A DNA stretch of 64,000 nucleotides from Lachnospiraceae bacterium (GCA_024685005.1 JAIKWF010000048.1:5470-69469); one strand, 5' to 3'. Numbered from the stretch's first letter, positions 7,873-32,170 are shown. Notes: generated from the letters alone by a model not told the origin. Made by a program: numbers and translations.

Positions 7873-8970
7873 AATTACAGGATTGATAAAAAAAGCCAGA
7901 CACCGGCTTATATACAGCTATATCGCTATTTTGTTTCCGATATAGAATCCGGTGTGTACCCTTACGGCAGCAAGATTCCTTCCAAACGGAATATTGCCGA
8001 GGAAACAGGGGTGAGTGTGATCACCGCAGAGCATGCGGTGGAGCTTTTAAATGAAGAAGGCTATGTGCAAAACAGACAGCGAAGCGGCGTTTTTGTGATC
8101 TATAAGGGAGAAGATTTTCTCACGGAATCCGTAAAAGAAGAGATCGTTGAAAAGGAGAATGACAGGGAAACTGAACCGGTCACACAGACCAAAGGAGAAT
8201 TTCCTTTTTCCGTTCTTGCCAAAACCATGCGGAAAGTTTTGCTTGATTACGGTGATGATATTCTGATAAAATCACCTAATCATGGGTGTGCACTTCTGAG
8301 GGAAGAGATCTGTCACTATCTGGCAAGAAGCCGGGGCATTGTGATACGGCCTTCCCAGGTGATCATCGGTTCCGGTGCGGAGTATCTTTACGGCCTCATC
8401 GCCCAGCTTTTGGGAGCGGGTCAGACCATTGCCATAGAGGATCCTTCCTATGGAAAGATCCGGGATGTTTACCGGGCCATGGATATTTCCTGTGATCTGC
8501 TAAGCCTTGGAGCCGACGGTATTCCCGCAGGGGAGCTTGCGCGTACGAGGGCAAAGGTCTTGCACGTTACGCCCTTTAACAGCTTTCCTTCCGGCGTTAC
8601 CGCAACCATTTCCAAGAAAAACGAATACATCAGGTGGGCCAAAAAACGGGATGGTATTCTCATAGAAGATAATTATGATTCGGAGCTTACCGTATCCAGA
8701 AGGATCGAACAACCTCTGTTTTCCATGGATCCGGAGGTAAAAGTGATCTACCTGAACACCTTTTCAAGGACACTGGCGCCTTCCATGAGAATCGGATACA
8801 TGATCCTGCCTCCGTCCCTGGAGGCGGCGTTTAATGAAAAGCTGGGATTTTATTCCTGTACTGTGCCCATATTTGATCAGTATGTTCTGGCAAAACTTTT
8901 GAAAAACGGAGACTTTGAGAGACACATCAATAGGATCCGGAGAAAGAGAAGAGAAAGGAAAAAACTATGA
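7870..8970 (+). CDS. MocR/GntR-family regulator (wHTH plus aminotransferase-like domain), atypical
   Basis: N-terminal GntR wHTH (KIPSKRNIAEETGVSVITAEHAVELLNEEGYV) and a fold-type-I aminotransferase-like domain (IEDPSYGK, IEDNYDSEL, LNTFSRTLAPSMRIGYMILP). Only 366 aa, and the usual SFSK lysine is Arg. Confidence 0.8.
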   Translation: MNYRIDKKSQTPAYIQLYRYFVSDIESGVYPYGSKIPSKRNIAEETGVSVITAEHAVELLNEEGYVQNRQRSGVFVIYKGEDFLTESVKEEIVEKENDRETEPVTQTKGEFPFSVLAKTMRKVLLDYGDDILIKSPNHGCALLREEICHYLARSRGIVIRPSQVIIGSGAEYLYGLIAQLLGAGQTIAIEDPSYGKIRDVYRAMDISCDLLSLGADGIPAGELARTRAKVLHVTPFNSFPSGVTATISKKNEYIRWAKKRDGILIEDNYDSELTVSRRIEQPLFSMDPEVKVIYLNTFSRTLAPSMRIGYMILPPSLEAAFNEKLGFYSCTVPIFDQYVLAKLLKNGDFERHINRIRRKRRERKKL

Positions 8971-9893
8971 CACTGAATCAGCTAAAATATGCCATTGCCA
9001 TATCCAAAGAGAATTCTTTAAATGATGCGGCAAAAAAACTGTTTATCTCGCAGCCATCCCTTACAGGTGCCATGCATGCCTTAGAGGATGAGCTGGGATT
9101 TGATATTTTTATCCGTTCCAAAACAGGTATTTCCCTGACGGTAAAGGGAGCGGAGTTTTTGGGCTATGCCAGATCCGTGGTGGAGCAGTATGACATTCTC
9201 GATACAAAATACATTTCCAAGACCAACATCAAGCGTCAGTTTAGCGTATCCATGCAGCATTACTCTTTCGCGGTAAAAGCGTTTATGGAAGTGGTAAAAA
9301 AATACGGCTACGATGATTATGAGTTTGAGGTCCATGAAACCAAGACCCATGAGATCATTGACAATGTGAAAAACCAGAAAAGTGAGATCGGTGTGCTGTA
9401 TCAGAATGATTTTAACAAAAAGGTTCTGGGCAAAGTGCTGTCGGAAGCAGGCCTTGCGTTTACCCCGCTATTCGACTGCCATATCTATGTTTACATCAGT
9501 AAGAAGAATCCCCTGGCGGCGGAAAAGCTCAAAAGCGGAGAGCCCATTTTGATGGAAGAACTGGATGAATATCCATGCCTGACCTTTGATCAGGGACAGT
9601 ATAACTCGGCGTACTATGCGGAAGAGGTGCTCAGCACCCATATGTACAAACAGACCATCCGGGTCAGTGACAGAGCCACCATGCTGAATCTGATCAAGGA
9701 AGTAAACGGATATACCCTTTGCTCCGGAATCCTGTGCGGGGATCTGAACGGTAAAGACTACTGCGGCATTAAGCTTGAAACGGATGAGACCATGACCATC
9801 GGTTACATCACAAGGAAAGATGCCATTATCAGTGAGATCGGTAAAAAATACATCGATGCACTGACCAAGTATAAGAAGATGGTGCTGGATTAA
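8967..9893 (+). CDS. LysR-family transcriptional regulator (candidate MetR/MtaR-like)
   Basis: N-terminal HTH LNDAAKKLFISQPSLTGAMHALEDELGFDIFIRSKTGISLTVKGAEFL plus a LysR substrate-binding domain. The start overlaps the MocR stop (ATGA). Sits directly upstream of the first Met-box promoter. Confidence 0.85.
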   Translation: MTLNQLKYAIAISKENSLNDAAKKLFISQPSLTGAMHALEDELGFDIFIRSKTGISLTVKGAEFLGYARSVVEQYDILDTKYISKTNIKRQFSVSMQHYSFAVKAFMEVVKKYGYDDYEFEVHETKTHEIIDNVKNQKSEIGVLYQNDFNKKVLGKVLSEAGLAFTPLFDCHIYVYISKKNPLAAEKLKSGEPILMEELDEYPCLTFDQGQYNSAYYAEEVLSTHMYKQTIRVSDRATMLNLIKEVNGYTLCSGILCGDLNGKDYCGIKLETDETMTIGYITRKDAIISEIGKKYIDALTKYKKMVLD

Positions 9894-9945
9894 ATACGGA
9901 TCAGACAGAAAGCGAAAAAAGCAAAGCTTACAAGAAGTGGCAGGT

Positions 9946-10013
9946 TATAGATTTTGGCTATAACCTGCCATAATTTTTACGCATTAGACAGTAAGCCGGG
10001 GAGATAGTATGAT
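9946..10013 (+). promoter_or_regulatory. Met-box-like palindrome plus sigma-A-type promoter P1 (mccB/mccA-like operon)
   Basis: 17-mer TATAGATTTTGGCTATA (9946-9962), inside a perfect 12-bp-arm hairpin GGCAGGTTATAG/CTATAACCTGCC. Then 22 nt, -35 TAGACA (9985-9990), a 17-nt spacer and -10 TATGAT (10008-10013). Confidence 0.6.
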
Positions 10014-10323: not shown

Positions 10324-11490
10324 ATGGGAGATTTTAAGAATGAACTGTCTATCGATTCAGTGCTGATCCACGGCGGGATAGACGGAGACGAAACAACGGG
10401 AGCGGTAAGCGTTCCTGTGTATCAGACATCAACTTACAAACAGGACGGACTGGGAAAGGATAGAGGATGGGAGTACTCCAGAACCGGCAACCCAACAAGA
10501 GCGGCTCTGGAAAAACTCATCGCCGATCTGGAGCAGGGATCCTACGGGCTGGCATTTGCTTCTGGCCTGGCCGCCATCAATACGGTGCTTTCCCTGTTCA
10601 AAAGCGGTGATAAACTGGTGGTCTCCGACAATATTTACGGCGGGACCTTCCGGATCCTGGATAACGTATTTAACAACTTCGGAATCACCTACGAGATCGT
10701 TGATACATCAGATCTGGCAGCTGTGGAAGCAGCCATTACGGATGAAGTAAAAGCTGTTTATGTGGAAAGCCCCGCCAATCCGCTCCTTACGGTAACGGAT
10801 ATCGAAGCGGTGGCAAAGATCACGAAAAAGACAGGGAAGTTGCTGATCGTGGATAACACCTTCCTGACCCCTTATCTGCAAAGACCTTTGACACTGGGGG
10901 CGGATATCGTGATCCACAGCGGTACCAAGTATCTGGGGGGGCATTCGGACACCATCTCCGGCTTTGTGGTGGTAGATGACAAGGCCCTGGCAGACAGACT
11001 GTACTATCTGCAAAATGCCATCGGCGGCGTTCTGGCACCCTGGGACAGCTTCCTCGTGATCCGTGGGATCAAGACTCTGGGAGTCCGCATGGACCGTCAT
11101 GTGGAGAATGCGAAAAAGATCGCAGAATGGTTAGCAGCAAGCAACTATGTTTCAAAGGTATATTATCCGGGCCTGAAATCTGATCCCGGGTATGAGACAC
11201 AGAAAAAGCAGGCTGACGGACCGGGAGCAATGATCTCCTTTGTACTGGATCAAAAGTATGATCATCGTAAGTTCTTCGAATCTCTTCATCTGGTGACACT
11301 GGCAGAGAGCCTAGGAGGCGTAGAGTCTCTGGTATGCCATCCTGCATCCATGACCCATGCAGCCATTCCGAAGGATGTGCGGGAAAAAGTGGGCATTGTG
11401 GATGAACTGATCCGCCTTTCTGTAGGCATTGAGAATGCAGAGGATCTGATCAAAGACCTCGAGCAGGCAATCAAGGCATCAGCAAGGTAA
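10324..11490 (+). CDS. Cys/Met-metabolism PLP enzyme (cystathionine gamma-lyase / beta-lyase / gamma-synthase family, MccB/MetC-like)
   Basis: 388 aa. Motifs VYQTSTY, NPTRAALE and PLP-lysine HSGTKYLGGHSD. RBS AGGAGG. Confidence 0.85.
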   Translation: MGDFKNELSIDSVLIHGGIDGDETTGAVSVPVYQTSTYKQDGLGKDRGWEYSRTGNPTRAALEKLIADLEQGSYGLAFASGLAAINTVLSLFKSGDKLVVSDNIYGGTFRILDNVFNNFGITYEIVDTSDLAAVEAAITDEVKAVYVESPANPLLTVTDIEAVAKITKKTGKLLIVDNTFLTPYLQRPLTLGADIVIHSGTKYLGGHSDTISGFVVVDDKALADRLYYLQNAIGGVLAPWDSFLVIRGIKTLGVRMDRHVENAKKIAEWLAASNYVSKVYYPGLKSDPGYETQKKQADGPGAMISFVLDQKYDHRKFFESLHLVTLAESLGGVESLVCHPASMTHAAIPKDVREKVGIVDELIRLSVGIENAEDLIKDLEQAIKASAR

Positions 11491-11510: not shown

Positions 11511-12434
11511 GTGATGAGAATGGATGTATATATGGACATCCACGAGATGATCGGAAACACACCGGTGATCAAACTGAATCATGTCGAGAAAAAAAATAAG
11601 AATGTCAATATTTTTGCAAAGCTGGAGCTGATGAATCCCGCCGGCAGCGTAAAGGACAGGGTAGGTGACTACATGATCAGGGACGCAGAGGAGCGGGGAA
11701 TCTTAAAGCCCGGCGGCACCATTGTGGATGCCACGGCGGGAAATACCGGTATCGGAATTGCTCTGGCGGCACTGAATAAAGGATACAGGATCATTTTCAC
11801 CGTACCTTTAAAGTTCTCCGTGGAAAAACAAAAGATCATGAAGGCACTCGGGGCAGAGATCGTCCATACCCCGAGAGAAGAGGGAATGCTTGGCGCCGAC
11901 AGGAAGGCGGATGAGATCATAGCCTCCATACCGGGAGCCATTTCCCTCAAGCAGTTTGATAATCCGGCCAACCCAAGGGCTCACTACGAGACAACAGGTC
12001 CTGAGATCTGGCGGCAGCTTGACGGAAAGGTGCACTATTTTGTGGCAGGCGCCGGCAGCGGCGGAACTTTTTCCGGAACGGTAAAGTATCTGAAAGAACA
12101 AAACCCCGATATAAAAGGGGTACTGGCTGATCCCGTAGGTTCCATCATAGGCGGCGGCGAGCATGCGGATTACGATATCGAAGGGATTGGCAATGATTTT
12201 ATTGCTGCCACCATGGATGTAAGCCTAGTGGATACGGTGGTTAAGGTCACCGATGATGAAGCCTTTGAAGCGGTAAAAACCCTGGCTAAAACCGAGGGGA
12301 TCATCGCAGGCTCTTCCTCCGGTGCGGCTCTTGCGGCAGCGCTGAAGCTGGCAGAGCAGATCGATCACGGAAATATAGTCGTGGTGTTCCCCGACAGAGG
12401 TGATCGCTATATCAGCAAAGGTCTGCTTGACTAA
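11511..12434 (+). CDS. cysteine synthase / O-acetylserine-dependent cystathionine beta-synthase family (CysK/MccA-like)
   Basis: Motifs GNTPVIKLN, PLP-lysine NPAGSVKDR, GNTGIGIA, GAGSGGTFSG. The start is uncertain: in-frame ATGs at 11514 and 11520 sit better relative to the GGAG at 11506-11509. Confidence 0.85.
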   Translation: MMRMDVYMDIHEMIGNTPVIKLNHVEKKNKNVNIFAKLELMNPAGSVKDRVGDYMIRDAEERGILKPGGTIVDATAGNTGIGIALAALNKGYRIIFTVPLKFSVEKQKIMKALGAEIVHTPREEGMLGADRKADEIIASIPGAISLKQFDNPANPRAHYETTGPEIWRQLDGKVHYFVAGAGSGGTFSGTVKYLKEQNPDIKGVLADPVGSIIGGGEHADYDIEGIGNDFIAATMDVSLVDTVVKVTDDEAFEAVKTLAKTEGIIAGSSSGAALAAALKLAEQIDHGNIVVVFPDRGDRYISKGLLD

Positions 12435-12462: not shown

Positions 12463-12477
12463 GGGTGTTGGAAGGCT

Positions 12478-12545
12478 TATAGGCTTTGCCTATAGGCCTT
12501 CATTATTTTTTGGTATTAGACAGGACAAAAGGGTTGAAATATGAT
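12478..12545 (+). promoter_or_regulatory. Met-box-like palindrome plus promoter P2 (nitrogenase-like operon)
   Basis: TATAGGCTTTGCCTATA (12478-12494), -35 TAGACA (12517-12522), 17-nt spacer, -10 TATGAT (12540-12545). Indexing was checked against the track ORF that starts at 12486. Confidence 0.6.
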
Positions 12546-12629: not shown

Positions 12630-14147
12630 ATGTCAAACATTAATCTGTCTCTTCCGGCTGTAGAGATCCGGGAGGTTCGAACCAGATCAGTTACAGGTTA
12701 TGACGGGAAAGCCGGAGAACTGGTGCAGAAAGCGCACGACGGTTCTCTTCGGGACGTGGAACGTTCTTTTCAGCAATGCGCCGGCTGCTCCATTACCAAG
12801 GCAGCCTGTATGACAGTACTGATCCAGGATGCGGCGGTGATCGAACACGGACCGGTGGGATGCTCCACCTGCCTGCAGGAATATAACTTTACCTATGCGG
12901 TAAACGCCGATTTAAGAGGCGTATCAAACCCCACAAGGCGCAGGATCTTTTCCACCAATCTGCAGGAAAAGGATACGGTTTACGGCGGACTGCGGAAGCT
13001 GGAAAAAACCATCCGCAGCGTATACGAGCGTACAAAGCCAAACGCCATCTTCGTGCTTTCCACCTGTGCCGCAGCCATTATAGGCGATGATATTGAAAGC
13101 GCCTGCGAAGAAGCAGAGGATGAGCTGGGAATTCCGGTGGTATCCATTGTCTGCGAAGGCTTCCGCTCCCGGGTGTGGACCACGGGATTTGATGCGGCTT
13201 ATCACGGCATTGCCAGAAAGCTCATCGATCCGCCGAAGGAAAAACGAAAGGACCTGATCAACGTGATCAATTTCTGGGGAAGCGATCGTTTTACAGACTG
13301 GTTTGCGCCCTTCGGATGCAAACCCAAATACATCACTCCTTTTTCCACAGTGAACGATCTTCGCAGCGCTTCCGAATCGGCAGCAACCATTCAGGCCTGC
13401 TCTACTCTGGGAAGTTATCTGGCGGCTGTTTTGGAAAAAGAGTTTGACGTGCCGGAGATCGAAACGGCACCGCCCTACGGGATTGCCCAGACAGACCGGT
13501 GGTTCAGAGCACTGGGAAAGATCCTGGGAAAAGAAGAGATCGCAGAGCAGGTCATCGCCGAAAAGAAGGAAAAATACCTGGGCAGGATCGCTCAGCTGAG
13601 AGAAAAGCTGCAGGGAAAGACAGCATACGTTACCGGCGGAGCTGCCCACGGACACGCACTTTTGTCTGTGCTGGGAGAGCTGGGGATCAATGCGGTGGGA
13701 GCTTCCATTTTCCATCATGATTCGGTGTTTGATTCCGGACGGGATGAAAACGATCAGCTGATGCAGAGAGTGGGGGATTACGGCGATGTGAGAAATTACA
13801 GGGTCTGCTCCAAGCAGGAGTATGAGTTGGCTAACTCCCTGGGGAAACTTCATCCGGATATTTTGCTTTCCAGACACGGGGGCATGACACTGTGGGGAGC
13901 CAAGTACGGAATCCCGTCCCTTCTGGTGGGAGATGAACATTACAGCATGGGTTATGAGGGAATCATTGATTACGGAGAGAGAATTCTGGATACCATTGAG
14001 AATGATGAGTTTGTAAAGAATCTGCAAAAGCATGCCATCAATCCCTATACAAAGTGGTGGCTGATGCAAAGACCGGATTACTTCTTTGAGACATCGGATA
14101 AAAAAGAAAAAGGAAAGGAGGAAAGTCAAAATGCCGGCATTGAATGA
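12630..14147 (+). CDS. nitrogenase-like component 1, NifD/NifE-like alpha subunit
   Basis: Start at MSNINLSL (ATG 12630, RBS AGGAGG), not the track start 12486. Motifs CAGCS, IEHGPVGC and STCAAAIIGDDIE match the P-cluster Cys positions of NifD. IQACSTLGSY and GDEHYSMGY resemble the Cys275 and His442 regions. Confidence 0.85.
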   Translation: MSNINLSLPAVEIREVRTRSVTGYDGKAGELVQKAHDGSLRDVERSFQQCAGCSITKAACMTVLIQDAAVIEHGPVGCSTCLQEYNFTYAVNADLRGVSNPTRRRIFSTNLQEKDTVYGGLRKLEKTIRSVYERTKPNAIFVLSTCAAAIIGDDIESACEEAEDELGIPVVSIVCEGFRSRVWTTGFDAAYHGIARKLIDPPKEKRKDLINVINFWGSDRFTDWFAPFGCKPKYITPFSTVNDLRSASESAATIQACSTLGSYLAAVLEKEFDVPEIETAPPYGIAQTDRWFRALGKILGKEEIAEQVIAEKKEKYLGRIAQLREKLQGKTAYVTGGAAHGHALLSVLGELGINAVGASIFHHDSVFDSGRDENDQLMQRVGDYGDVRNYRVCSKQEYELANSLGKLHPDILLSRHGGMTLWGAKYGIPSLLVGDEHYSMGYEGIIDYGERILDTIENDEFVKNLQKHAINPYTKWWLMQRPDYFFETSDKKEKGKEESQNAGIE

Positions 14148-15477
14148 AATGATAGAACAGCCCAGGTTTTCCTGTGCCATCGGCGCACTGCAAAGCGTAG
14201 TTGCCATTCCCAGAGCGGTACCCATTCTGCATTCCGGACCGGGATGCGGGGACATGGTTTCGGGCTTTTTTGAACGAAGCAAGGGATATGCCGGAGGCGA
14301 TACCTCCCCCTGTACCAATTTTAACGAAAAAGATGTGGTATTCGGCGGATCGGAGAAGCTCAGGAAGATCATCAAAAATACATACAAGGTGCTGGATACG
14401 GATCTGCAGGTGGTTCTGACAGGCTGTACAGGCGGTATCGTAGGTGATGATATCGAAAGCGTGGTACAGGAATTTCAGGATGCGGGAAAACCCATTGTAT
14501 CTGTTGATACGCCGGGTTTTAAATGCAATAACTACGTATCCCATTCCCATGTGGTAAAGGCCATCATCGATCAGTATGTTTCCCTGTATGAGGAGGACAA
14601 TAAAACCCGCAGTGACAGGAAACTGGTCAATCTTTTTGCAAGCATTCCCTATCAGGATCCTTTCTGGAAAGGGAATCTGCGGGAGTATAAGCGCCTGCTG
14701 GAAGGCCTGGGTCTGAAGGTCAATGTATTGTTCGGACCTGACAGCGGAGGCGTTACGGAGTGGCAAACCATACCGAAGGCGAACTTTAATATTCTGGTAT
14801 CGCCCTGGTACGGTAAGCCCATTACGGATCATTTAAAGCGCCTTTACGGACAGGAAACCTATTGGTTCCATTCCGTCCCCATCGGTGCCAATGAAACGGA
14901 AAAATTCCTGGAAGGAGTTTTGGATTTTGCCGCTTTGCAAAAAGCAGACATTGACCGAAAGAAGGCGGAAGCCTTTATCAAACACGAGACTGACCGCTAC
15001 TATGAGGAGATCGATAATCTGGCCACTTTCCTTCTGGAATTTAGATACGGCCTACCCCGCTACGCCCACATCCTGCATGATGCGGGATATGTGGTGGGAA
15101 TGTCCAAGTTTCTACTGCATGAAACCGGCGTTGTACCGAAGGAAGTATTTGTAGTGGACAACACACCGGAGAAATATCGGGAACAGATTGAAAAAGATCT
15201 GGCCTCCACCAGTGACAAACGGACCATCCCCGTTTTCTTTGAAGCAGATGCGGGAGAAGCCCAGGAAACCATCAAACAGGCAGATCACAAAGGAAGAGGC
15301 ATTATTTTAGGTTCCGGCTGGGATAAGTCCCTGGCAAAGGAAAAGAATTGTGATTTTCTTTCCGTGGCAGTGCCCAGTCCCGTGCGTCTGGTACTGACAA
15401 CCAATTATGTGGGATTTTCCGGTGGACTTAGGCTGATCGAGGATATTTACCAGACAGCGCTTCATACTTACGGATGA
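14131..15477 (+). CDS. nitrogenase-like component 1, NifK/NifN-like beta subunit
   Basis: Start at MPALNEMIEQ (ATG 14131, RBS AGGAGG), overlapping the alpha-subunit stop by 17 nt. Motifs FSCAIGAL, LHSGPGCG and LTGCTGGIVGDDIE match the NifK Cys70/95/153 positions. No long N-terminal extension. Confidence 0.85.
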   Translation: MPALNEMIEQPRFSCAIGALQSVVAIPRAVPILHSGPGCGDMVSGFFERSKGYAGGDTSPCTNFNEKDVVFGGSEKLRKIIKNTYKVLDTDLQVVLTGCTGGIVGDDIESVVQEFQDAGKPIVSVDTPGFKCNNYVSHSHVVKAIIDQYVSLYEEDNKTRSDRKLVNLFASIPYQDPFWKGNLREYKRLLEGLGLKVNVLFGPDSGGVTEWQTIPKANFNILVSPWYGKPITDHLKRLYGQETYWFHSVPIGANETEKFLEGVLDFAALQKADIDRKKAEAFIKHETDRYYEEIDNLATFLLEFRYGLPRYAHILHDAGYVVGMSKFLLHETGVVPKEVFVVDNTPEKYREQIEKDLASTSDKRTIPVFFEADAGEAQETIKQADHKGRGIILGSGWDKSLAKEKNCDFLSVAVPSPVRLVLTTNYVGFSGGLRLIEDIYQTALHTYG

Positions 15478-15842
15478 TGGAGAAACACAAAGAAAGATCT
15501 GACGGGAGCACAGCCATGAGAATAGGATTTGCAAGCACGGACGGGATCAGCGTCAACGAGCACTTCGGCCATGCAAAGTATTGGGAGATTTATGAACTGA
15601 ACAAAGAGGCGGAGTTTGTGGAAACCAGAATGGTACGGGCAGGATGCAGCTGCCACGATCCCGGCGTGTTTGATGAAATGCTTTCCCTTCTATCTGATTG
15701 CAGTGCCCTTGTGGTATCCCGGATCGGAGAAGGGGCAGCAGCTTATGTTACGGGAAAAGGAAAGAGAGTGTTTGAAGCAGCCGGATATATCGAACAGCTG
15801 GCAGAGATCTTGTATGAAAAGTTAGCGGAGGAGAACAATTGA
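15474..15842 (+). CDS. NifX/NafY/NifB-C-terminal-domain-like cofactor-binding protein
   Basis: MRIGFASTDGISVNEHFGHAKYWEIYEL is the signature N-terminus of the dinitrogenase FeMo-cofactor-binding family. ATGA overlap with the beta-subunit stop. An alternative start is ATG 15516. Confidence 0.75.
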   Translation: MMEKHKERSDGSTAMRIGFASTDGISVNEHFGHAKYWEIYELNKEAEFVETRMVRAGCSCHDPGVFDEMLSLLSDCSALVVSRIGEGAAAYVTGKGKRVFEAAGYIEQLAEILYEKLAEENN

Positions 15843-16714
15843 GTATTTCACCACAGGAACTGAGACAGCGCCATCCCTGTTTTGCGCTGGGAGAAAAAAC
15901 AAACAGCGGCAGGATTCATTTGCCGGTGAGCTTCGGATGCAACATCGGCTGCAATTTTTGCATACGGGATCTGAATGAAACGGAAAACAGACCCGGAGTT
16001 GCCGGTGACATCCTTACGCCAAAAGAAGCCCTGGAGGCCGTAGGCCGGGCGGTGGAAGCCATGCCTCAGATACAGGTGGCCGGCGTGGCCGGACCGGGAG
16101 ATACCCTGGCAAGTCCCCATGCGCTGGAGACGTTTCGCCTGATTAAGGAAAGGTATCCGAAGCTGATCAAGTGCATGAGTACCAACGGACTGATGCTTTC
16201 AAAGCTGGCAGATCAGGTGATAGAAGCGGGCATTGATACGCTTACCGTAACGGTAAATGCAGTGGACGAAGAGATCCTTGCACAGATCAACAGCTTTGTG
16301 ATCTGGGAAGGGAAAAAATACGAAGGGATACAGGCGGCAAAGATCCTCATCGAAAATCAGCTTTCAGGCATTGAAAAGGTTGTTAAGGGAGGCGTTACGG
16401 TAAAGGTCAATACCGTACTGATCCCCCAACTGAATCAGGAGCATATCGGGAAGATCGCCAAAACCGTGGCAGAGCGGGGGGCGTCGATCTATAACATCAT
16501 CCCTCTGATCCCACAGCATAAGCTGAAAAACATGAGAGAACCTTCCTGCGAAGAACTTTACAGCGCAAGGGCGGAGGCAGAGAAGTATATCAGGGTATTC
16601 CGGCATTGTCAAAGGTGCCGGGCCGATGCGGCAGGCATCCCGGGCGGAAGGGATATTTCCAAACAGATCTATCTGAAAGAGATCCGGGCGGAGAACACCT
16701 TTTCACATGGATGA
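15839..16714 (+). CDS. radical SAM protein, minimal NifB-like
   Basis: 291 aa. HPCF then CNIGCNFC (CX3CX2C), followed by NETENRPGV and GVAGPGD as in NifB. TTG start overlaps the preceding stop by 4 nt. No fused NifX domain. Confidence 0.8.
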   Translation: MSISPQELRQRHPCFALGEKTNSGRIHLPVSFGCNIGCNFCIRDLNETENRPGVAGDILTPKEALEAVGRAVEAMPQIQVAGVAGPGDTLASPHALETFRLIKERYPKLIKCMSTNGLMLSKLADQVIEAGIDTLTVTVNAVDEEILAQINSFVIWEGKKYEGIQAAKILIENQLSGIEKVVKGGVTVKVNTVLIPQLNQEHIGKIAKTVAERGASIYNIIPLIPQHKLKNMREPSCEELYSARAEAEKYIRVFRHCQRCRADAAGIPGGRDISKQIYLKEIRAENTFSHG

Positions 16715-16743
16715 TCATTGATAAAAAAGAAAGATACAAGTAG

Positions 16744-17610
<867 letters not shown>

Positions 17611-17616
17611 TGTCGC

Positions 17617-17684
17617 CATAGGCAAAACCTATAACCGATGATAAACAATAGGAATTAGACAGCGTGGGTTTCATGCCTTAAGAT
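17617..17684 (+). promoter_or_regulatory. Met-box-like palindrome plus promoter P3 (AhpD-like / yezD / metNIQ unit)
   Basis: CATAGGCAAAACCTATA (17617-17633), starting 7 nt after the NifH-like stop. -35 TAGACA (17656-17661), 17-nt spacer, -10 TAAGAT (17679-17684). Confidence 0.55.
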
Positions 17685-17722: not shown

Positions 17723-18277
17723 ATGGCAAGAGTAAAATTATTGGAACTGGAAGAAACAACCGGAGCGGAGAAAGAACGCTACGAAGAACTGGCCGGCAGA
17801 AATGCAGTCACAAATATGAAACGGGGACTTTTAAATGATGCGGCCACATATGATGCATACATGGCATGGTACACTTCGTGGAAACGCCTGGTGGAAGTCA
17901 TCGGTGAAAAAGATGCGGTCCTTTACGCACATGCAATTTCAACCACCAATTCCTGCCAGCTGTGCTCACTGTTTTTCATCAGCGACGTAAAAGGTCTGGG
18001 ACTTGACCCGGCAAACCTTCAGTACGATGAAAAAGAAACAGCACTGACAGATCTGGGAAGAGCAATCGTTAAGAATCCCACAGCTGTATCCGACGAGCTT
18101 TTCGATACGCTGAAGAAATTCTGGAATGATCAGGAGATCGTGGTGATCGTAGGATTCGCAGGTCAGATGATCGCAACCAACAACTTCAACTCTGTATTGA
18201 AGATTGACGTGGACCAGAGACTTCTTCCCATCATTGATGAGTTTAAGCCGGCTACATGGAGAGAGAATATCAAGTAA
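17723..18277 (+). CDS. carboxymuconolactone decarboxylase / AhpD-like family protein with CxxC
   Basis: 184 aa, all-helical. HAISTTNSCQLCSLFF carries the AhpD-type CxxC motif. Strong RBS AAGGAGG. Confidence 0.7.
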   Translation: MARVKLLELEETTGAEKERYEELAGRNAVTNMKRGLLNDAATYDAYMAWYTSWKRLVEVIGEKDAVLYAHAISTTNSCQLCSLFFISDVKGLGLDPANLQYDEKETALTDLGRAIVKNPTAVSDELFDTLKKFWNDQEIVVIVGFAGQMIATNNFNSVLKIDVDQRLLPIIDEFKPATWRENIK

Positions 18278-18578: not shown

Positions 18579-19634
18579 ATGATCAAATTGGAAAATCTGG
18601 AAAAAACCTATCATACGGATGCAGGGGATGTCCACGCCCTTTCAAATGTATCCCTTACGATCCCGAAGGGGAGTGTTTACGGGATCGTGGGAGCCAGCGG
18701 CGCGGGGAAAAGTACCCTGATCAGAAGCATCAATCTTTTGGAAAAACCGGACGCAGGAAAGGTGTTTATAGACGGAGAGAATATCACACTTTTATCCGGA
18801 AAAAGTCTGGAACAAAAGAGACAAAAGATCGGAATGATCTTCCAGCATTTTAACCTGCTCAAATCCAAAACGGTATATGAAAATATTGCGTTTCCTCTGA
18901 AATACCGCAAGGAAAAACCAAAAGAAATCGAAAAGCGGGTAGACGCACTTTTAAAGCTGGTAGATCTGGAAGATAAGAAGGGTTCTTACCCTTCCCAGCT
19001 GTCCGGGGGCCAGAAGCAACGGGTTGCCATCGCAAGAGCTCTTGCCAATGATCCGAATATTCTTCTTTGTGATGAAGCAACATCCGCTCTGGACCCTCAA
19101 ACGACAGCTTCCATTCTGACTCTTTTGCGGAATCTGAATGAGAAACTGGGGATCACGGTGGTTTTGATCACGCACCAGATGTCGGTAGTAAAAGAAATCT
19201 GCGACAGGGTGGCTGTGGTGGAAGCCGGACAGATTGTGGAAGAGGCCCAGACTTATGAATTGTTTGCCAATCCGCAGAAAGAGATCACAAAACGCTTTGT
19301 GGATACGGTCTTTCATAATGATGACGTGGAAAGACTTTTGGAACAGGATGATCTGCAAAAGAGGCTTAGCCGGGGAGAAGAGATCTGGCATCTGGTATTT
19401 CGGGGAGAAGGCGCAAATCATGCCTACATTGCAGAGCTGATCCGCAAATTTTACCTTGACATCAGCGTGATCTACGGCTCCATTGAGATCATACAAAATA
19501 AACCCATCGGAAACCTTTATGTTTCCATCGGCGGCAATGACGGGTGCCTGCGGGGGGCACTGGGATATCTGAGAAGGGAAGGGATCAGCACCGAGCCCCT
19601 TCTTCTGAAAGAAACGGAGGAGGCCATCGGATGA
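18579..19634 (+). CDS. metN: methionine ABC transporter ATP-binding protein
   Basis: Walker [10 protein letters not shown], signature [15 protein letters not shown], Walker [12 protein letters not shown], and a C-terminal NIL-type domain. Confidence 0.9.
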
Positions 19635-20311
19635 AAGAATTATTGATACGCTATTTACCCAATGTATTTGAGCTGCAGGACTATTTCCTGCAATCCATAA
19701 AGGAAACCGCCATCATGGTGCTGATCACCGGTGCCATCGGCCTGAGTCTTGGAGTGATCACCGGCATCATACTGGTGGTGACAGACAAAGGCGGGCTGTA
19801 TGAAAACAGTACGGTTCACAGTCTTCTAGGCAGGGTGATCAACGTGGTAAGGTCCATTCCCTTTGTGATCCTCATAGCTTTGATGGTAACCTTTACCAGA
19901 TTCCTGGTGGGGACCGCCATCGGCGTAAAGGGTGCCATCGTTCCCATGGTGGTGGGAGTGATCCCGCTGGCATCAAGACTGACGGAGCAGGCACTTTTGG
20001 AAACGGACCCCGGTGTTCTGGAGGCGGGAAGATCCATGGGAATTTCCAGAGGATATCTGATCCGCCATGTGATGATACCGGAAGCGCTGCCGGGACTGAT
20101 CCGGGCAGTTGTCACCTGCTTTATCAGCCTCATCGGCCTGACGGCTATGGCAGGCAGCGTGGGAGGCGGCGGCATCGGAAGCTTCGCCATCAGGTACGGT
20201 TATAACCGGTACATGGAAGATGTAACCATTGTATGTGTGCTCTTTTTGCTCATTCTGGTCAGTATCATTCAAAGCCTGGGCAACAGGGCTGCAGATAGAT
20301 TAACACATTAA
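19631..20311 (+). CDS. metI: methionine ABC transporter permease
   Basis: Start at MKELLIRY (ATG 19631, ATGA overlap with metN). MetI-type BPD permease with GSVGGGGIGSFAIRYGY near the C-terminus. Confidence 0.9.
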   Translation: MKELLIRYLPNVFELQDYFLQSIKETAIMVLITGAIGLSLGVITGIILVVTDKGGLYENSTVHSLLGRVINVVRSIPFVILIALMVTFTRFLVGTAIGVKGAIVPMVVGVIPLASRLTEQALLETDPGVLEAGRSMGISRGYLIRHVMIPEALPGLIRAVVTCFISLIGLTAMAGSVGGGGIGSFAIRYGYNRYMEDVTIVCVLFLLILVSIIQSLGNRAADRLTH

Positions 20312-20344
20312 GTTTTTTGTTTTACAAAAGGAGGAGTAACTATT

Positions 20345-21343
20345 ATGAAAAAGATCGTATTTAACAAAAAGGCAGCTGCCATCATAGCTGCGGCAGCACT
20401 ATTGGTAACCGGATGCGGACAGAGCGCATCTACCGGCGGAGGCGACAGCAAGGAGGCAGCAGAGCCGGAAGCAGTGGAAACACAGGATGTTGAAGCGAGC
20501 GAAGAAACTTCGGAAGCAGATGCACAGGATACGCAGGATGCCGGAGAAGACGCAGAGGCTGAATCTGCAGAGGAAAAACAGGGGATCAAATCAGAGGACG
20601 GTCAGCCCATCATCGTAAAGATCGGTACAACCTCCGACGAGAACCGGATCTGGGATGCACTGAATGAAGAACTGGCAGAAAGAGGAGATGATATCAAGGT
20701 AGAATGGGTAAACGTACAGCAGACCAATCAGGTCCTTGCAGACGGTGAAGTGGATCTGAACTCTTTTCAGCATTATGCATACTTTGATGCCAACACCGCG
20801 GATCTGGGACTGGATCTGACGGCCATCGGAGAAACCCTGATCGTACCCTTAAACCTGTTTTCCGAAAAACATGCATCCTTAGATGAGATCCCCGAGGGCG
20901 GTTCCATTGCCATCCCTGAGGATGCCACCAATCAGGGAAGAGCTTTGCATGTACTGGAAAATGCGGGTCTGATCAAGCTGGCTGAGGGCGTAGGCGTAAA
21001 CGGAACGGTTTCCGATATAGCGGAGAATCCCAAGAATATCAAGATCGTTGAAATGGAAGGACCTGAGCTTCCCAGAACTCTGGCAGATGTGGATGCGGCC
21101 ATCATCAACTGCGGATATGCTACCGATTACGGTCTGGATCCCGTAAACGATCCCATCTATAAAGACGAGATTGACTTTACGGATCCTGCGCAGCATCCCT
21201 TCATCAACATCATTGCAGCCCGCACCGAAGACAAGGACAACGAAGTATATCTCGAGGTAGTGGATGCGTACAGAACAGAGCGTGTGGCAAAGGCTATTTT
21301 GGAAGTTTACAACAACGCGGCAATCCCCGCATTTGAGTATTAG
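20345..21343 (+). CDS. metQ: MetQ/NlpA-family substrate-binding lipoprotein
   Basis: Lipobox LLVTGCGQ, an acidic Glu/Asp/Ala-rich linker, then the NlpA-type domain (NSFQHYAYF, INCGYA). Confidence 0.85.
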   Translation: MKKIVFNKKAAAIIAAAALLVTGCGQSASTGGGDSKEAAEPEAVETQDVEASEETSEADAQDTQDAGEDAEAESAEEKQGIKSEDGQPIIVKIGTTSDENRIWDALNEELAERGDDIKVEWVNVQQTNQVLADGEVDLNSFQHYAYFDANTADLGLDLTAIGETLIVPLNLFSEKHASLDEIPEGGSIAIPEDATNQGRALHVLENAGLIKLAEGVGVNGTVSDIAENPKNIKIVEMEGPELPRTLADVDAAIINCGYATDYGLDPVNDPIYKDEIDFTDPAQHPFINIIAARTEDKDNEVYLEVVDAYRTERVAKAILEVYNNAAIPAFEY

Positions 21344-21386
21344 TAGTTAGCGGTTGCTAACAAAAATTCGGAAGGAAGCACAGAGG

Positions 21387-22535
21387 ATGACAGAGATTAC
21401 AGAGCAGCAAAAAGAGGAAATGATCGCCCTGCGGCGCTGGTTTCATGCCCATCCGGAGATCTGCTTTGAGGAGCATGAAACAGCCGCAAAGATCAGAGAA
21501 GAGCTGGACAAACTGGATATACCCTGGCAGAGCGTGGGAACCGGAACGGTGGCTGTCATAGAAGGGAAAAAGGAAGGAGCAGTGATTGGCCTTCGGGCCG
21601 ATATAGATGCGCTTCGGATCACCGAGAAAAACGAGGTTTCCTACCGATCACAAAACGAAGGCGCGATGCACGCCTGCGGACATGATGCTCATACGGCAGC
21701 CCTTTTGGGGGCTGCCCGTATTTTAAAAGAGCAGCAGGATCAGCTGGAAGGTACGGTGAAGCTGATCTTCCAGCCCGCTGAAGAGATCGGAAGGGGGGCA
21801 CAGACCATAGTGGATTCCGGGCTGATCGATGATGTGAACTTCTTTTTTGGGATCCATGTAAGAAGCCTTGAAGAAGTGGGGCTTATGGAAATATCAAAAG
21901 GAGCTGTCATGGGAGGCGCCAATTCACTGAAGATTTTTCTGCAGGGGAAAAGTGCACACGGTGGAAGACCGCATCTTGGAATCGATACCATTACATGCGG
22001 CGCCCAGATCGTACAGGGATTGCAGAATGTGGTATCCAGAGAAATATCCGCCCATGAATCCGCAGTGATCTCGGTGGGAATGTTTCACGGCGGAACGGCC
22101 GAGAATATTGTGGCAGGAGAGACCACCATCAAGGGAACCATCAGAGTCCTCTCCGACACTGTCAGAGAGCAGATCGCAGATGCGGCGGTGCGGCTTGTGA
22201 AGGGAATTGCGGCTGCTAACCGGGTTTCTGTGAAAGTGGAAAGTGAATTTGAAACACCCATTCTGAAAAATTCGGAGCTGCTGTATGATACCGTAAAGCA
22301 AGCGGGCATTCAGGTAGCAGGGGCCGAAAAGATCATACCGGCCCAGCCGGATCTGGGAACGGAGGATTTTTCCGCATACAGTCAGATCGCCCCATCCTTC
22401 TTCGTATTTGTGGGTGCCGGCGGATCCTATCCCCATCATCATGAACGGTTCGATCTGGACGAAAATGTGCTGCCCATAGCAGCAGCAATGCATGTGGCAT
22501 TTGTATCGCAGTGCAGTAAAATAAAGGCTTCTTAA
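21387..22535 (+). CDS. M20-family amidohydrolase (N-acyl-amino-acid deacylase / hippurate hydrolase type)
   Basis: HAHPEICFEEHET, MHACGHDAHTA and GGTAENIV motifs. Start set at ATG 21387; the track TTG 21354 is possible. Confidence 0.8.
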   Translation: MTEITEQQKEEMIALRRWFHAHPEICFEEHETAAKIREELDKLDIPWQSVGTGTVAVIEGKKEGAVIGLRADIDALRITEKNEVSYRSQNEGAMHACGHDAHTAALLGAARILKEQQDQLEGTVKLIFQPAEEIGRGAQTIVDSGLIDDVNFFFGIHVRSLEEVGLMEISKGAVMGGANSLKIFLQGKSAHGGRPHLGIDTITCGAQIVQGLQNVVSREISAHESAVISVGMFHGGTAENIVAGETTIKGTIRVLSDTVREQIADAAVRLVKGIAAANRVSVKVESEFETPILKNSELLYDTVKQAGIQVAGAEKIIPAQPDLGTEDFSAYSQIAPSFFVFVGAGGSYPHHHERFDLDENVLPIAAAMHVAFVSQCSKIKAS

Positions 22536-22546
22536 AGACAGGCTGT

Positions 22547-22614
22547 TATAGGTTTTACCTATAGCAGCCTATAATTCTTATGTATTTGTCAGGGAACCCA
22601 TCCTGTTTTATAGT
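22547..22614 (+). promoter_or_regulatory. Met-box-like palindrome plus promoter P4 (second metQ)
   Basis: TATAGGTTTTACCTATA (22547-22563), -35 TTGTCA (22586-22591), 17-nt spacer, -10 TATAGT (22609-22614). Indexing was checked against the track ORF that starts at 22580. Confidence 0.6.
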
Positions 22615-22681
22615 GAATTACGACAAAACAAGAGGACCTGAAAACAAAAAGCTTAAGGTCAAGCTAAAGGAGGAGAACATT

Positions 22682-23614
22682 ATGAAAAAGAAAATCGTAT
22701 CACTGATCATCACAGCAGCATTGGCAGTCAGCGCAGCAGGATGCGGAAACACTGCAAAAACCGAAGCACCTGAGACGGAGGCACCTGCAGCAGAAGCTGA
22801 AGCAGAAGTATCCGATGTAACGCCTGATGAAGAAGCTGACGCTTCTGAAGATTCTTCCGAAGAATCCGCACAGGCACCTGCAGAGGAAGTCACCATTAAG
22901 GTTGGCGCAAACATTACACCCCATGCTGAGATCCTTGAGGTAGTAAAGCCCATCCTGGCAGAGCAGGGTATCAACCTTGAGATCGTACAGATCGAAGATT
23001 CCATCACACCCAACACCGGCGTTATTGAAGGAAGCCTGGATGCAAACTACTTCCAGCATGTACCTTATCTGGAGCAGTTCAACGAAGAGAACGGATCGGA
23101 TCTGGTATCCATCGGTGCCATCCACTATGAGCCCTTCGGCATATATGCAGGAAAGACTTCCGATCTGTCCCAGCTTCCCGACGGAGCAACGGTTGCAGTA
23201 CCCAATAATGTGACCAACGAAGCAAGAGCACTGCTGCTTTTAGCACAGGAAGGACTGCTTACCCTGAAAGAGGATGCGGGCATTGAGGCGACCATCGCAG
23301 ACATAGTTGAGAATCCCAAGAACATTCAGTTCAAGGAGCTGGCGCCCGAGCAGCTTGTGGCAGCACTTCCCGATGTTGATGTAGCAGTTATCAACGGAAA
23401 CTACGCAATTGAAGGCGGCCTTCATGTAAGCGGTGCGCTGGCAGTTGAAGCAAATGACGGACTGGCAGCAACCACCTACGGCAATATCATTGCAACCACT
23501 CCCGATAAGGCAGAAGATCCTGCTTTGAAGGCACTGGTAGAGGCACTTCAGGGAAGCGAAGTAAAAGAGTTTATCGAAGGTAAGTATGATGGTGCGGTAG
23601 TACCTCTGAACTAA
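22682..23614 (+). CDS. metQ: MetQ/NlpA-family substrate-binding lipoprotein, second copy
   Basis: Start at MKKKIVSL (ATG 22682, RBS AAGGAGGAG). Lipobox AVSAAGCGN, an acidic linker, then the NlpA domain (ANYFQHVPY, INGNYA). Confidence 0.85.
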   Translation: MKKKIVSLIITAALAVSAAGCGNTAKTEAPETEAPAAEAEAEVSDVTPDEEADASEDSSEESAQAPAEEVTIKVGANITPHAEILEVVKPILAEQGINLEIVQIEDSITPNTGVIEGSLDANYFQHVPYLEQFNEENGSDLVSIGAIHYEPFGIYAGKTSDLSQLPDGATVAVPNNVTNEARALLLLAQEGLLTLKEDAGIEATIADIVENPKNIQFKELAPEQLVAALPDVDVAVINGNYAIEGGLHVSGALAVEANDGLAATTYGNIIATTPDKAEDPALKALVEALQGSEVKEFIEGKYDGAVVPLN

Positions 23615-23624
23615 TATAAAACAG

Positions 23625-23663
23625 GAATATGGTGGGGCTTATACAGACCGCCATATTCTTTTT
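23625..23663 (+). terminator. rho-independent terminator after the second metQ
   Basis: Arms GAATATGGTGG and CCGCCATATTC followed by TTTTT. Confidence 0.6.
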
Positions 23664-23770
23664 AAGACATAGGCGACCGAGCAAGAACGGTCACATATCC
23701 AAATAGAAAAAAGTTTGCATAAACTAACAATAACAACACCCCAAAAACAGTTAGAAAACAGGATTGAACT

Positions 23771-24802
23771 ATGGCAGAAGAAAAAACAAAAGTATATGAG
23801 CTTTCTCATGTAACAAAAATCTATGAAAACGAAGGAAAGAAATTTACTGCTTTAAAAGATGTTTCCCTTTCGGTATATGAAGGAGAAATCTTCGGGATCA
23901 TCGGAATGAGCGGCGCCGGCAAATCCACGCTGGTGCGAACCTTAAACCGCCTGGAAGAGATCAATGAAGGAACAGTAAGTTTTTACAATGATATCATCGG
24001 AGATCTGAAGCAAAAGGATCTTCGAAAGATCAGACAGTCCATTGCCATGATCTTCCAAAGCTTTAATCTCTTAAACCAGAAAACGGTGCTGGAAAACGTG
24101 GCCCTTCCTTTAAAGATCGCGGGAGTGAGCCGTGCAAAGCGCAGGGAAAAGGCATTGGAGATGCTGCAGGTGGTAGGACTGGAAGATAAGAAGGATTCCT
24201 ATCCTGCAAGACTTTCCGGCGGACAAAAGCAGCGGGTAGCCATTGCAAGAGCACTGGCAGCAGATCCCAAAGTTCTTCTTTGCGACGAAGCTACATCGGC
24301 GCTGGACCCCAAGATCACCGAGGAGATCCTGGAACTGCTGCAGACCATCAATAAAACCCGGAATCTGACGGTGATCATCATCACCCACGAGATGTCAGTG
24401 GTGGAAAAGATCTGCGACAGAGTAGCCATTATCGATAACGGCGTTGTGGCGGAAGTGGGAGAGGTTTCGGAGGTATTTACCAATCCGAAATCCGATGCGG
24501 CAAAGCGACTGGTACTGCCGGGGCAGGATGAAAAAAATATCAATCCCTATGACTGCTCCAATCAGGGGGCAAAAGTCGTACGGATCGTATTTGACGGCTT
24601 CTCCGCAAAGGAACCGGTGATCTCGACGCTGGTGGAAGATACGGGGCTGAAGGTCAATATCTTAAGTGCCAACACCAAGAGCGTCGGCGGCAAGGGCTAC
24701 GGTCAGATGATCGTGGAGTTGCCGAAAGGGGAAAAAGAGCAGGAAACCGTTCTTGATTTCTTTGAACAAAGAGGAATACAGATATTGGAGGTGAGTGCAT
24801 AA
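23771..24802 (+). CDS. metN: methionine ABC transporter ATP-binding protein, second copy
   Basis: Walker [36 protein letters not shown], and a C-terminal NIL domain. Confidence 0.9.
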   Translation: MAEEKTKVYELSHVTKIYENEGKKFTALKDVSLSVYEGEIFGIIGMSGAGKSTLVRTLNRLEEINEGTVSFYNDIIGDLKQKDLRKIRQSIAMIFQSFNLLNQKTVLENVALPLKIAGVSRAKRREKALEMLQVVGLEDKKDSYPARLSGGQKQRVAIARALAADPKVLLCDEATSALDPKITEEILELLQTINKTRNLTVIIITHEMSVVEKICDRVAIIDNGVVAEVGEVSEVFTNPKSDAAKRLVLPGQDEKNINPYDCSNQGAKVVRIVFDGFSAKEPVISTLVEDTGLKVNILSANTKSVGGKGYGQMIVELPKGEKEQETVLDFFEQRGIQILEVSA

Positions 24803-25455: not shown

Positions 25456-25568
25456 AATACAGACAAGGAGAGAACCCGGAATAGTGTAACGGATTAAAGC
25501 GGGAATATAAACGTAAAGGGAAAAACGCCGGAGAATCGCCGGTGCGTAAATATAAAGGAGGAAAAACC

Positions 25569-32009: not shown

Positions 32010-32102
32010 AGTGATATCGCTCCTGTTTTTTCGCTTACTTTATATAGTATACCACCCTGCAGCAAAGTATGCATCTGCTAACTTTAAAATCAGTCTCTGC
32101 GT

Positions 32103-32170
32103 TATAGGATGAGGCTATAACAGCACATTGGCAGGAACGATTATACAGACAGCGGATCCGGTGCTATGAT
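32103..32170 (+). promoter_or_regulatory. Met-box-like palindrome plus promoter P5 (metY)
   Basis: TATAGGATGAGGCTATA (32103-32119), -35 TATACA (32142-32147), 17-nt spacer, -10 TATGAT (32165-32170). No plus-strand gene lies upstream, so it cannot be a terminator. Confidence 0.55.

Follow-up and report, generated by a model that had tools for sequence, protein, structure and literature searches.

Carbide-containing iron-sulfur clusters normally take a long assembly line to build, and the locus described here raises the question of how a nitrogenase-like enzyme could obtain such a cluster when most of that line is missing. The locus is a five-gene nitrogenase-like operon, nflD-K-X-B-H (positions 12630-17610), recognized from the open reading frame (ORF) listing and profile scans of a 64,000-nucleotide (nt) stretch of the genome of a Lachnospiraceae bacterium, a gut anaerobe (GCA_024685005.1, JAIKWF010000048.1:5470-69469), hereafter called the window. 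A first-pass annotation of the window had proposed that two genes at 15474..16714, one encoding a NifX-like and one a short NifB-like protein, supply the cofactor of the enzyme without a NifEN scaffold. We consider it likely that these two genes, nflX and nflB, work as a pair dedicated to maturing the cofactor within a self-contained Group IV-A operon whose enzyme releases sulfur.

Both ORFs are present on the plus strand (15474-15842, 122 amino acids [aa], and 15839-16714, 291 aa), and their location between the K-like and NifH-like genes, as first described, agrees with the ORF positions and Pfam matches (Table 1). The probable start codons of nflD and nflK lie downstream of the longest-ORF starts. 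The source assembly consists of 2.94 Mb in 134 contigs with a completeness of 97.26%; the window ORFs were scanned against Pfam and NCBIfam profiles, and the whole assembly was searched in six frames with PF00148. NifE and NifN had been described as absent from the window, and this extends to the whole assembly, in which PF00148 gave two matches, nflD and nflK, and no further gene of the NifD/K/E/N family. Over the genome, the nifB model matched nflB and nflX only, leaving no second NifB; no NifV match exceeded the cut-off (best 139 bits vs 462.9), and nflH was the sole strong Fer4_NifH match. Because these searches for nifEN, nifV, and additional nifB copies found none, the nfl system is genuinely self-contained, within the limit of 97% completeness.

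NflB carries a radical S-adenosylmethionine (SAM) domain (PF04055 Radical_SAM, 65.9 bits) and covers positions 10-295 of the 441 positions of the NCBIfam nifB model (TIGR01290) with 274.1 bits. Its closest solved structures are the archaeal NifB proteins of Methanothermobacter thermautotrophicus (MthNifB; 7JMA/7BI7, 291 bits, E 7e-86, 269 residues aligned) and Methanothrix thermoacetophila (6Y1X, 261 bits). Since these best solved relatives are minimal, radical-SAM-only proteins of ~290 aa that lack a NifX domain, a length of 291 aa is, by this comparison, a known NifB architecture. The ligands were mapped by using the printed alignment to MthNifB and the ligand list in the available part of PMC8179604. 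The K-cluster ligands C18, H31, C115, and C260/C263 of MthNifB correspond to C14, H27, C112, and C257/C260 of NflB, and the radical SAM cluster cysteines C38/C42/C45 to C34/C38/C41 (CX3CX2C). The K1/K2 alignment suggested by the first-pass annotation therefore finds all five strictly conserved ligands and the radical SAM cysteines in place, as in the archaeal proteins. Across 120 close homologues (61-100% identical, 288-313 aa), the K-cluster and radical SAM cysteines and His27 are invariant (120/120). The C-terminus of NflB (window 16690-16714) is a conserved TFSHG tail, with F288, S289, H290, and G291 invariant in 36 aligned sequences; this tail falls outside the aligned region of archaeal NifB.

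The flexible loop of NflB is different from that of archaeal NifB, as MthNifB C52 is replaced by Thr48 and E53 corresponds to E49. Of the 120 homologues, 119 have E or D at position 49, position 48 is mostly T, V, Y, or I, and a loop cysteine of any kind occurs in just one. Among the NifB hallmarks listed in the first-pass annotation, the radical SAM cysteines and the HPC cysteine hold; NETENRPGV does not, as canonical NifB has a cysteine at the place of Thr48. Two validated MarB proteins, which serve methylthio-alkane reductases (MARs), are informative here. According to Table S1 of PMC13753814 (read by eye), the translated R. rubrum MarB has Ser at the loop-cysteine position, and the split MarB of R. 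hungatei reads KTENRPGV where NflB reads ETENRPGV. By this reading, the ETENRPGV loop shows the motif as it occurs in NflB/MarB and not as in canonical NifB. The missing loop cysteine was also considered as evidence that NflB cannot make NifB-co and was rejected: because validated MarB proteins lack it too, Thr48 is no argument against function.

The NifX-like domain had been described as a separate upstream gene, and its match to PF02579 (Nitro_FeMo-Co; 66.1 bits, cut-off 26.3) bears this out with a revised start. ATG 15516, with GGGAG 8 nt upstream, is likelier than 15474, and the NflX proteins of relatives begin at an equivalent MR(V/I)GFAS, in line with ATG 15516 as the probable true start. 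Within the NCBIfam nifB model, NflX aligns with the NifX-domain part (48.7 bits, positions 320-433 of 441); against the nifX equivalog TIGR02663 it scores below the cut-off (40 bits vs 112). Thirteen columns are invariant across 28 homologues, including H16 and F17 (HF) and C62. The TTG start of nflB overlaps the nflX stop codon (TTGA) and is preceded by GGAGGAG, which suggests translational coupling of the two genes. In a docking prediction, the NflX-NflB pair scored 0.41 (best control 0.00), with runs agreeing in at least 41% of contacts and a partner predicted local distance difference test value of at least 75. When the tool was calibrated, 116 of 157 solved complexes reached the mark, as did 2 of 215 mismatched pairs; both of these mismatches, but only 18 of the 157 complexes, did so with scores of 0.60 or lower, and the support is accordingly graded weak. 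The fusion of NifX to NifB in other lineages is a stronger argument than docking for joint action. Another contig encodes, among unrelated neighbours (MGMT-like, GNAT), a further NifX-family (Nitro_FeMo-Co) protein that stands alone; it is 128 aa long and its tail is rich in His and Cys (G000:C16:921-1307, minus strand, locus L009).

The enzyme that this pair would serve finds its best matches among solved structures in a MAR. The best PDB match of NflD is R. rubrum MarD (9FMG_A, 407 bits; best true NifD, 122 bits), and that of NflK is R. rubrum MarK (9D9U_C/9FMG, 378 bits; NifK, 76 bits). On chain 9FMG_A, whose numbering agrees with that of the MarD paper, the cofactor ligands Cys270 and His429 align with Cys257 and His416 of NflD; Trp195, Phe199, and His375 are kept, and His194 and Gln74 are replaced by Val182 and Met61. 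The first-pass annotation had noted the retention of Cys275- and His442-like ligands. The cysteine is indeed kept (C257, the counterpart of MarD Cys270); the histidine is not the equivalent of NifD His442, as H416 is the counterpart of MarD His429 in a MarD-type loop. NflD residues C257, H416, R415, H362/H363, W183, F187, C53, C78, and C146 are invariant in 120 of 120 homologues, and Met61 and Val182 are found in 113 and 108 of them. For NflK, reading its sequence alongside NfaK C13/C37/C97, as given in the accessible part of PMC13474568, yields C15, C39, and C99, and six P-cluster cysteines and the Cys/His cofactor pair are thus present in NflD/NflK. NflH exceeds the nifH equivalog cut-off (TIGR01287, 459.5 vs 394.35 bits), though the genome has no nitrogenase; because they pass such marker thresholds, nifH-like genes of this kind can be miscounted as nitrogen fixers in marker-gene surveys.

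Sequence comparisons assign the operon to a clade apart from the MARs. A Eubacterium oxidoreducens protein shares 83% identity with NflD, and the value for Acetivibrio thermocellus P0145 is 75%; the N-terminus of P0145 equals that of the translated 'Hth_A' NflD in Table S1 of PMC13753814 (compared by eye), an entry labelled there as NflD Group A and NflH group I. In a search of 1.84 billion representatives, the representative of its own clade was 68% identical to NflD and those of other clades at most 42%; the 42% identical one, P0244, is MarD-like (616 bits to 9FMG_A). A quick IQ-TREE analysis of 66 rows placed NflD in a clade of six that includes P0145 (SH-aLRT [Shimodaira-Hasegawa-like approximate likelihood ratio test] 100, stem 0.42), with the MarD-like rows adjoining the clade but falling outside it; the support values are SH-aLRT without bootstraps, and the tree has one labelled Group A anchor. 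Table S1 is the source of the group label. The cysteines of NflD are numbered 50, 53, 60, 78, 81, 146, and 257, equal to those quoted for E. proavitum NfaD in the part of PMC13474568 at hand. Because of the P0145 identity, the clade search, the tree, and the cysteine numbering, the operon is, on these sequence criteria, a nitrogenase-like (NFL) Group IV-A ('Nfa') system, not a member of the MAR clade IV-C. Filing it as a MAR (Group IV-C) is ruled out by this placement together with the published negative screens of Group IV-A systems.

We then compared the operon with 43 loci related to it at 67-85% identity, all of them from named genomes (those of Lachnospiraceae, Acetivibrio, rumen Treponema, and others). 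Layouts were counted in the 34 of 43 loci with at least 5.2 kb after the nflD start, and the genes seen were those matching window proteins. The order D-K-X-B is found in 28 of the 34; nflH follows directly in 17 loci, and other matched genes precede it in 10. Thirty-one of the 34 carry nflX, which in every case lies between K and B. Three loci have no adjacent nflX and six no adjacent nflB; the genomes of five of the latter six were searched, and all five encode NifB-like genes elsewhere. Cysteine/methionine (Cys/Met) genes or genes of ATP-binding cassette (ABC) importers are neighbours in 31 of the 34 loci. Acetivibrio-type loci (L013-L015, L036-L038, L040, and L045) carry a MetY-like pyridoxal phosphate (PLP) enzyme and an NMT1/SsuA-type ABC importer between nflX/nflB and nflH, and in L015 and L036 nflB is encoded elsewhere. 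Spirochaete loci (L018-L031, L044, and L050, from rumen Treponema/Spirochaetaceae) have the same D-K-X-B(-H) operon; since their NflD is 68-69% identical to the clostridial one, lateral transfer of the operon among gut and rumen anaerobes is suggested. A 5.2-kb contig binned as Burkholderiaceae (L042) bears the D-K-X-B set with an NflD 72% identical; faulty binning is a more probable explanation here than a proteobacterial copy.

The surroundings of the operon in the window indicate what the enzyme may be for. The palindrome TTATAG-N7-CTATA(A) yields nine strand-matches at five window sites, compared with 0.46 expected, and three of the five sit in a shared module with TAGACA-17-TATGAT-like hexamers; one such module lies directly ahead of nflD and the others ahead of Cys/Met and met-transport genes (Table 1). 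Exact copies in the genome are confined to this contig. With one mismatch allowed, the genome-wide operator search gave 19 matches, vs 24 for a reversed-pattern control, and meaningful copies are the exact and palindromic ones only, nearly all in this contig. Several palindrome matches in related loci were discarded as coding-sequence coincidences within the conserved 3' end of nflK. The palindrome is probably the operator of the LysR-family regulator at 8967-9893; the closest relatives (L033, L034, and L053) have a 77% identical homologue of this regulator in the vicinity of the operon. The outer stems differ yet stay complementary, and the sites look like terminators too, so that operator and terminator readings of the hairpins are both possible. 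An Rfam scan of the whole window at gathering thresholds gave no match, including S-box and T-box, and thus no such riboswitch that would explain the regulation. No PII, glnA, or amtB gene was seen among the genes annotated at 8.9-33.5 kb. The public sequencing runs listed as containing the sequence were gut-metagenome DNA runs, with no RNA run among them. Collectively, this arrangement places the operon in a putative LysR-type Cys/Met sulfur regulon and points to sulfur acquisition. The CxxC protein encoded directly after nflH is found beside the operon in none of the 43 related loci and is therefore lineage-specific. Corrinoid methyltransferase gene clusters are said to accompany Group IV-A genes (PMC10418091); this link was rejected as inapplicable here because the genome, at 97% completeness, has no match to the URO-D family.

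Table 1. Positions (window numbering) of the nfl genes, the palindromes, and the neighbouring genes.
Feature	Coordinates	Strand	Remarks
LysR-family regulator	8967..9893	+	PF00126 + PF03466; candidate regulator of sulfur regulon
Palindrome 1, TTATAG-N7-CTATAA (T-N11-A type)	9945..9963	.	Upstream of TAGACA-17-TATGAT promoter-like site and mccB-like gene
Cys/Met PLP enzyme (cystathionine lyase/synthase type, MccB-like)	10324..11490	+	PF01053, 510.7 bits
CysK/MccA-like PLP enzyme	11511..12434	+	PF00291, 254.5 bits
Palindrome 2 and promoter-like module	12477..12495	.	Directly upstream of nflD; also has the form of a terminator-like hairpin
nflD	12630..14147	+	Group IV-A alpha subunit (by sequence), 505 aa from ATG 12630; PF00148, 304 bits
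nflK	14131..15477	+	Beta subunit, 448 aa from ATG 14131; PF00148, 218 bits
nflX	15516..15842	+	NifX/NafY-type putative cluster carrier, 108 aa; PF02579; ORF open from 15474
nflB	15839..16714	+	Truncated NifB-like radical SAM maturase (predicted), 291 aa, TTG start
nflH	16756..17610	+	NifH-like ATP-dependent reductase; PF00142, 419 bits; TIGR01287 nifH, 459.5 bits
Palindrome 3 (1 mismatch)	17617..17634	.	Between nflH and downstream genes, ahead of AhpD-like gene and first metNIQ set
AhpD/CMD-like CxxC protein	17723..18277	+	No Pfam match; weak NCBIfam matches
MetN-MetI-MetQ type ABC importer	18579..21343	+	PF00005 + PF09383, PF00528, PF03180
M20 amidohydrolase	21354..22535	+	PF01546 + PF07687
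Palindrome 4 and promoter-like module	22546..22564	.	Upstream of second MetQ-MetN-MetI set and Fe-alcohol dehydrogenase (22580-26732)
Palindrome 5	32102..32120	.	Upstream of MetY-like O-acetylhomoserine sulfhydrylase-type gene (32221-33504)

The route that we propose takes gene content, ligand conservation, the absence of NifEN, clade membership, and the sulfur context from the observations above; the identity of the cluster, its hand-off by NflX, and the class of substrate we infer by analogy with relatives. NflB, as a NifB-type radical SAM enzyme, would hold one SAM cluster and two substrate [4Fe-4S] sites (K1 and K2), fuse both cubanes, and add a ninth sulfide together with a carbide from SAM, so that an [Fe8S9C] cluster of the L-cluster/NifB-co type results. 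NflX, the NifX domain as a separate, translationally coupled protein, may receive or shield this cluster, which would then enter apo-NflDK directly and be held there by NflD Cys257 and His416; as no heterometal or homocitrate would be added, no NifEN step should be needed. NflH would feed in electrons, driven by ATP, via a P-type cluster on the six conserved cysteines. Because the operon forms one unit of the LysR-type Cys/Met regulon, the enzyme most likely serves not to fix N2 but to free assimilable sulfur reductively from an organosulfur compound. The earlier proposal that a NifB-co-type cluster is delivered without NifEN is well supported by homology, that is, by the K ligands, the genome searches, and the Cys/His pair of NflD. 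The description of the host as a non-diazotroph, in turn, is not established, as distant Group IV-A members are reported to show weak N2-dependent growth.

Maturation free of NifEN is not a new idea: it is the working model of the field and has been shown genetically for MAR, including split systems. NifEN and its homologues are dispensable for the MAR of R. rubrum, marHDK is inactive unless marB or nifB is present, and NifB can stand in for MarB; the need for MarB in the absence of NifB has been shown only for the systems from R. hungatei and Propionispora (PMC13753814, mBio 2026). Some MarB proteins are truncated, with a separate nflX adjacent, and in R. rubrum without nifB, activity is obtained with the split NflX and truncated MarB from R. 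hungatei and from F. succinogenes (PMC13753814). These two split systems resemble the window pair in having a separate NifX-like gene beside a radical-SAM-only NifB homologue of ~290 aa with a TENRPGV loop devoid of the canonical cysteine, in serving a Group IV DK enzyme, and in lacking a NifEN gene; they were tested with Group IV-C enzymes (MARs), whereas the window pair, known from sequence, accompanies a Group IV-A enzyme in the order D-K-X-B-H. R. rubrum MarBHDK (9FMG, 9D9U) shares with the window the residues named above and the P-cluster cysteines, and its maturation depends on MarB or NifB rather than NifEN. It differs in that its MarB is fused to a NifX-like part, that MarD His194 and Gln74 are Val and Met in the window clade, and that NflD belongs to a separate clade, 42% identical to the MarD-like representative; Group IV-A systems also gave no relevant MAR activity in the published screen. 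According to the accessible part of PMC12552129, MarDK holds a P-cluster and an [Fe8S9C] cluster on Cys270/His429, and its authors argue that such a Cys/His anchorage needs a carbide-centred cluster.

Other relatives define the system from the Group IV-A side. The NfaBHDK systems of E. proavitum and H. fasciatum belong to the same group and have the same D-subunit cysteine numbering, a NifB homologue, no NifEN, and a predicted L-like cluster; for Group IV-A, the 2026 review (PMC13474568, in the part seen) notes NifB motifs in NfaB and predicts that the L-like cluster sits on the Cys/His pair. By the same portion of the review, NfaBHDK is linked with limiting nitrogen, and PII genes accompany it in E. 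proavitum, whereas the window operon has a Cys/Met context and a split NflX/NflB. The H. fasciatum system, read by eye, differs further in its fused NifB with the canonical loop cysteine, its Group II NflH, and its more divergent NflD N-terminus. The A. thermocellus system (Hth_A) is much closer, having an NflD 75% identical, split NflX/NflB, Thr in the loop, and a Group I NflH, and the NflB of a near-identical Acetivibrio protein is 64% identical to that of the window; the Acetivibrio-type loci differ in the MetY-like gene and NMT1-type ABC importer that they place between nflB and nflH. Archaeal NifB, finally, has the loop Cys52 and serves Mo-nitrogenase via NifEN, whereas NflB has Thr48 and the TFSHG tail in a genome without NifEN.

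Several observations weigh against a dedicated NflX/NflB pair making [Fe8S9C] for a sulfur-releasing enzyme, and three other explanations draw on them. NflX might not be an obligatory carrier but an accessory storage or protective protein, or might act in a NafY-like manner on NflDK, with NflB passing the cluster to NflDK directly. The working mode of NflX is stated as unknown in PMC13753814, 3 of the 34 loci have no adjacent nflX (6 of 34 have no adjacent nflB), archaeal NifB works without a NifX domain, and the docking score of 0.41 gives weak support by the calibration of the tool. Given that nflX nonetheless lies between K and B wherever it occurs, which is in 31 of the 34 loci, that TTGA coupling ties it to nflB, that NifX is fused to NifB/MarB in other lineages, and that 13 columns including one cysteine are invariant, we regard an accessory role as unlikely, if still a serious contender. 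A different doubt concerns the product of NflB, which may be another or less elaborate cluster (for example a K-type fused [Fe8S8] one or one free of carbide), or NflDK may hold cubane-type clusters only; either way, the idea of a complex metallocluster would be wrong for this clade. NflB stays under the TIGR01290 cut-off of 343.65, even when NflX is added (274 + 49), and has Thr48 at the place of MthNifB C52, with a loop cysteine in 1 of 120 homologues; because replacement of C52 and E53 in an archaeal NifB abolished NifB-co synthesis (PMC8179604, in the part available), the loss of the loop cysteine could change NflB chemistry. Moreover, the central carbide of the MAR cluster was not resolved directly (PMC13753814 and the accessible part of PMC12552129), and the accessible part of the 2026 review lists no purified Group IV-A enzyme and calls the cofactors of this group unknown (PMC13474568). 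Set against this, MarB without the loop cysteine matures active MAR, and NifB substitutes for it, which points to an equivalent product; the K-cluster and SAM-cluster ligands are all invariant; and NflD keeps the Cys/His anchorage that is argued to need a carbide-centred cluster (PMC12552129, in part). A simpler cluster thus appears improbable.

The function of the enzyme is open to a further challenge, namely that it is an alternative nitrogenase (Nfa) that reduces N2 or another nitrogen compound; NflX and NflB would still make the cofactor, and the product would be ammonia. NflD indeed falls in the clade labelled Group IV-A and has the cysteine numbers of E. proavitum NfaD, NflH exceeds the nifH equivalog cut-off, and E. 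proavitum shows N2-dependent growth and 15N2 uptake, the reported fixation by these distant IV-A members being weak (PMC13474568, in the part seen). The promoter/operator module common to the operon and the Cys/Met genes, with no PII, glnA, or amtB gene seen at 8.9-33.5 kb, argues otherwise, as do the Cys/Met or ABC-importer neighbours in 31 of 34 loci and the differences in NifB, NflH, and NflD that set the H. fasciatum system apart. The review itself, in the same part, treats the N2-fixing role of the E. proavitum and H. fasciatum systems as unsettled and doubts that N2 fixation is the primary function (PMC13474568). We therefore hold a nitrogen-reducing role to be very improbable. A sulfur-releasing role has evidence of its own to answer. 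When 13 of 43 Group IV-A systems were screened in R. rubrum, all gave <10 μmol/L/OD (optical density) with 2-(methylthio)ethanol (MT-EtOH) and ethyl methyl sulfide (EMS), and with dimethyl sulfide (DMS) Group IV-A also stayed below the cut-off, except for Clostridium magnum (methane from DMS); the constructs in Table S1 include the A. thermocellus system (PMC13753814). Since NifH-like Group I reductases perform poorly in the R. rubrum host (PMC13753814), these negative screens are not decisive; for the MarDK of Clostridium sp. DL-VIII, such a reductase was exchanged for one compatible with the host.

There is also a bolder proposal, which we advance only tentatively and with somewhat less than even confidence: besides MAR and the N2-fixing Nfa, the clostridial/treponemal Group IV-A branch may represent a third kind of L-cluster enzyme that releases sulfur from a substrate other than those screened, perhaps one taken up through the linked transporters (MetNIQ or NMT1-type). 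The branch is marked by Met61 and Val182 in NflD (MarD Gln74 and His194), a Group I NifH-like reductase, an NflB without the loop cysteine but with the TFSHG tail, and a separate NflX. If the branch is such a third kind, the two-protein route to its cofactor would be the smallest known, and the negative MAR screens would reflect the choice of substrate or the incompatibility of a Group I reductase with the host.

Because the point has already been made and tested for methylthio-alkane reductases, the locus offers no new principle; it is instead a clean natural example, with no other nitrogenase-family gene in the genome to help. A five-gene set that makes do with a single radical SAM enzyme and a single small carrier has its appeal for work on nitrogenase-type chemistry or its transplantation, and the operon touches on the question of what Group IV-A enzymes reduce in the clostridia and spirochaetes of gut and rumen.

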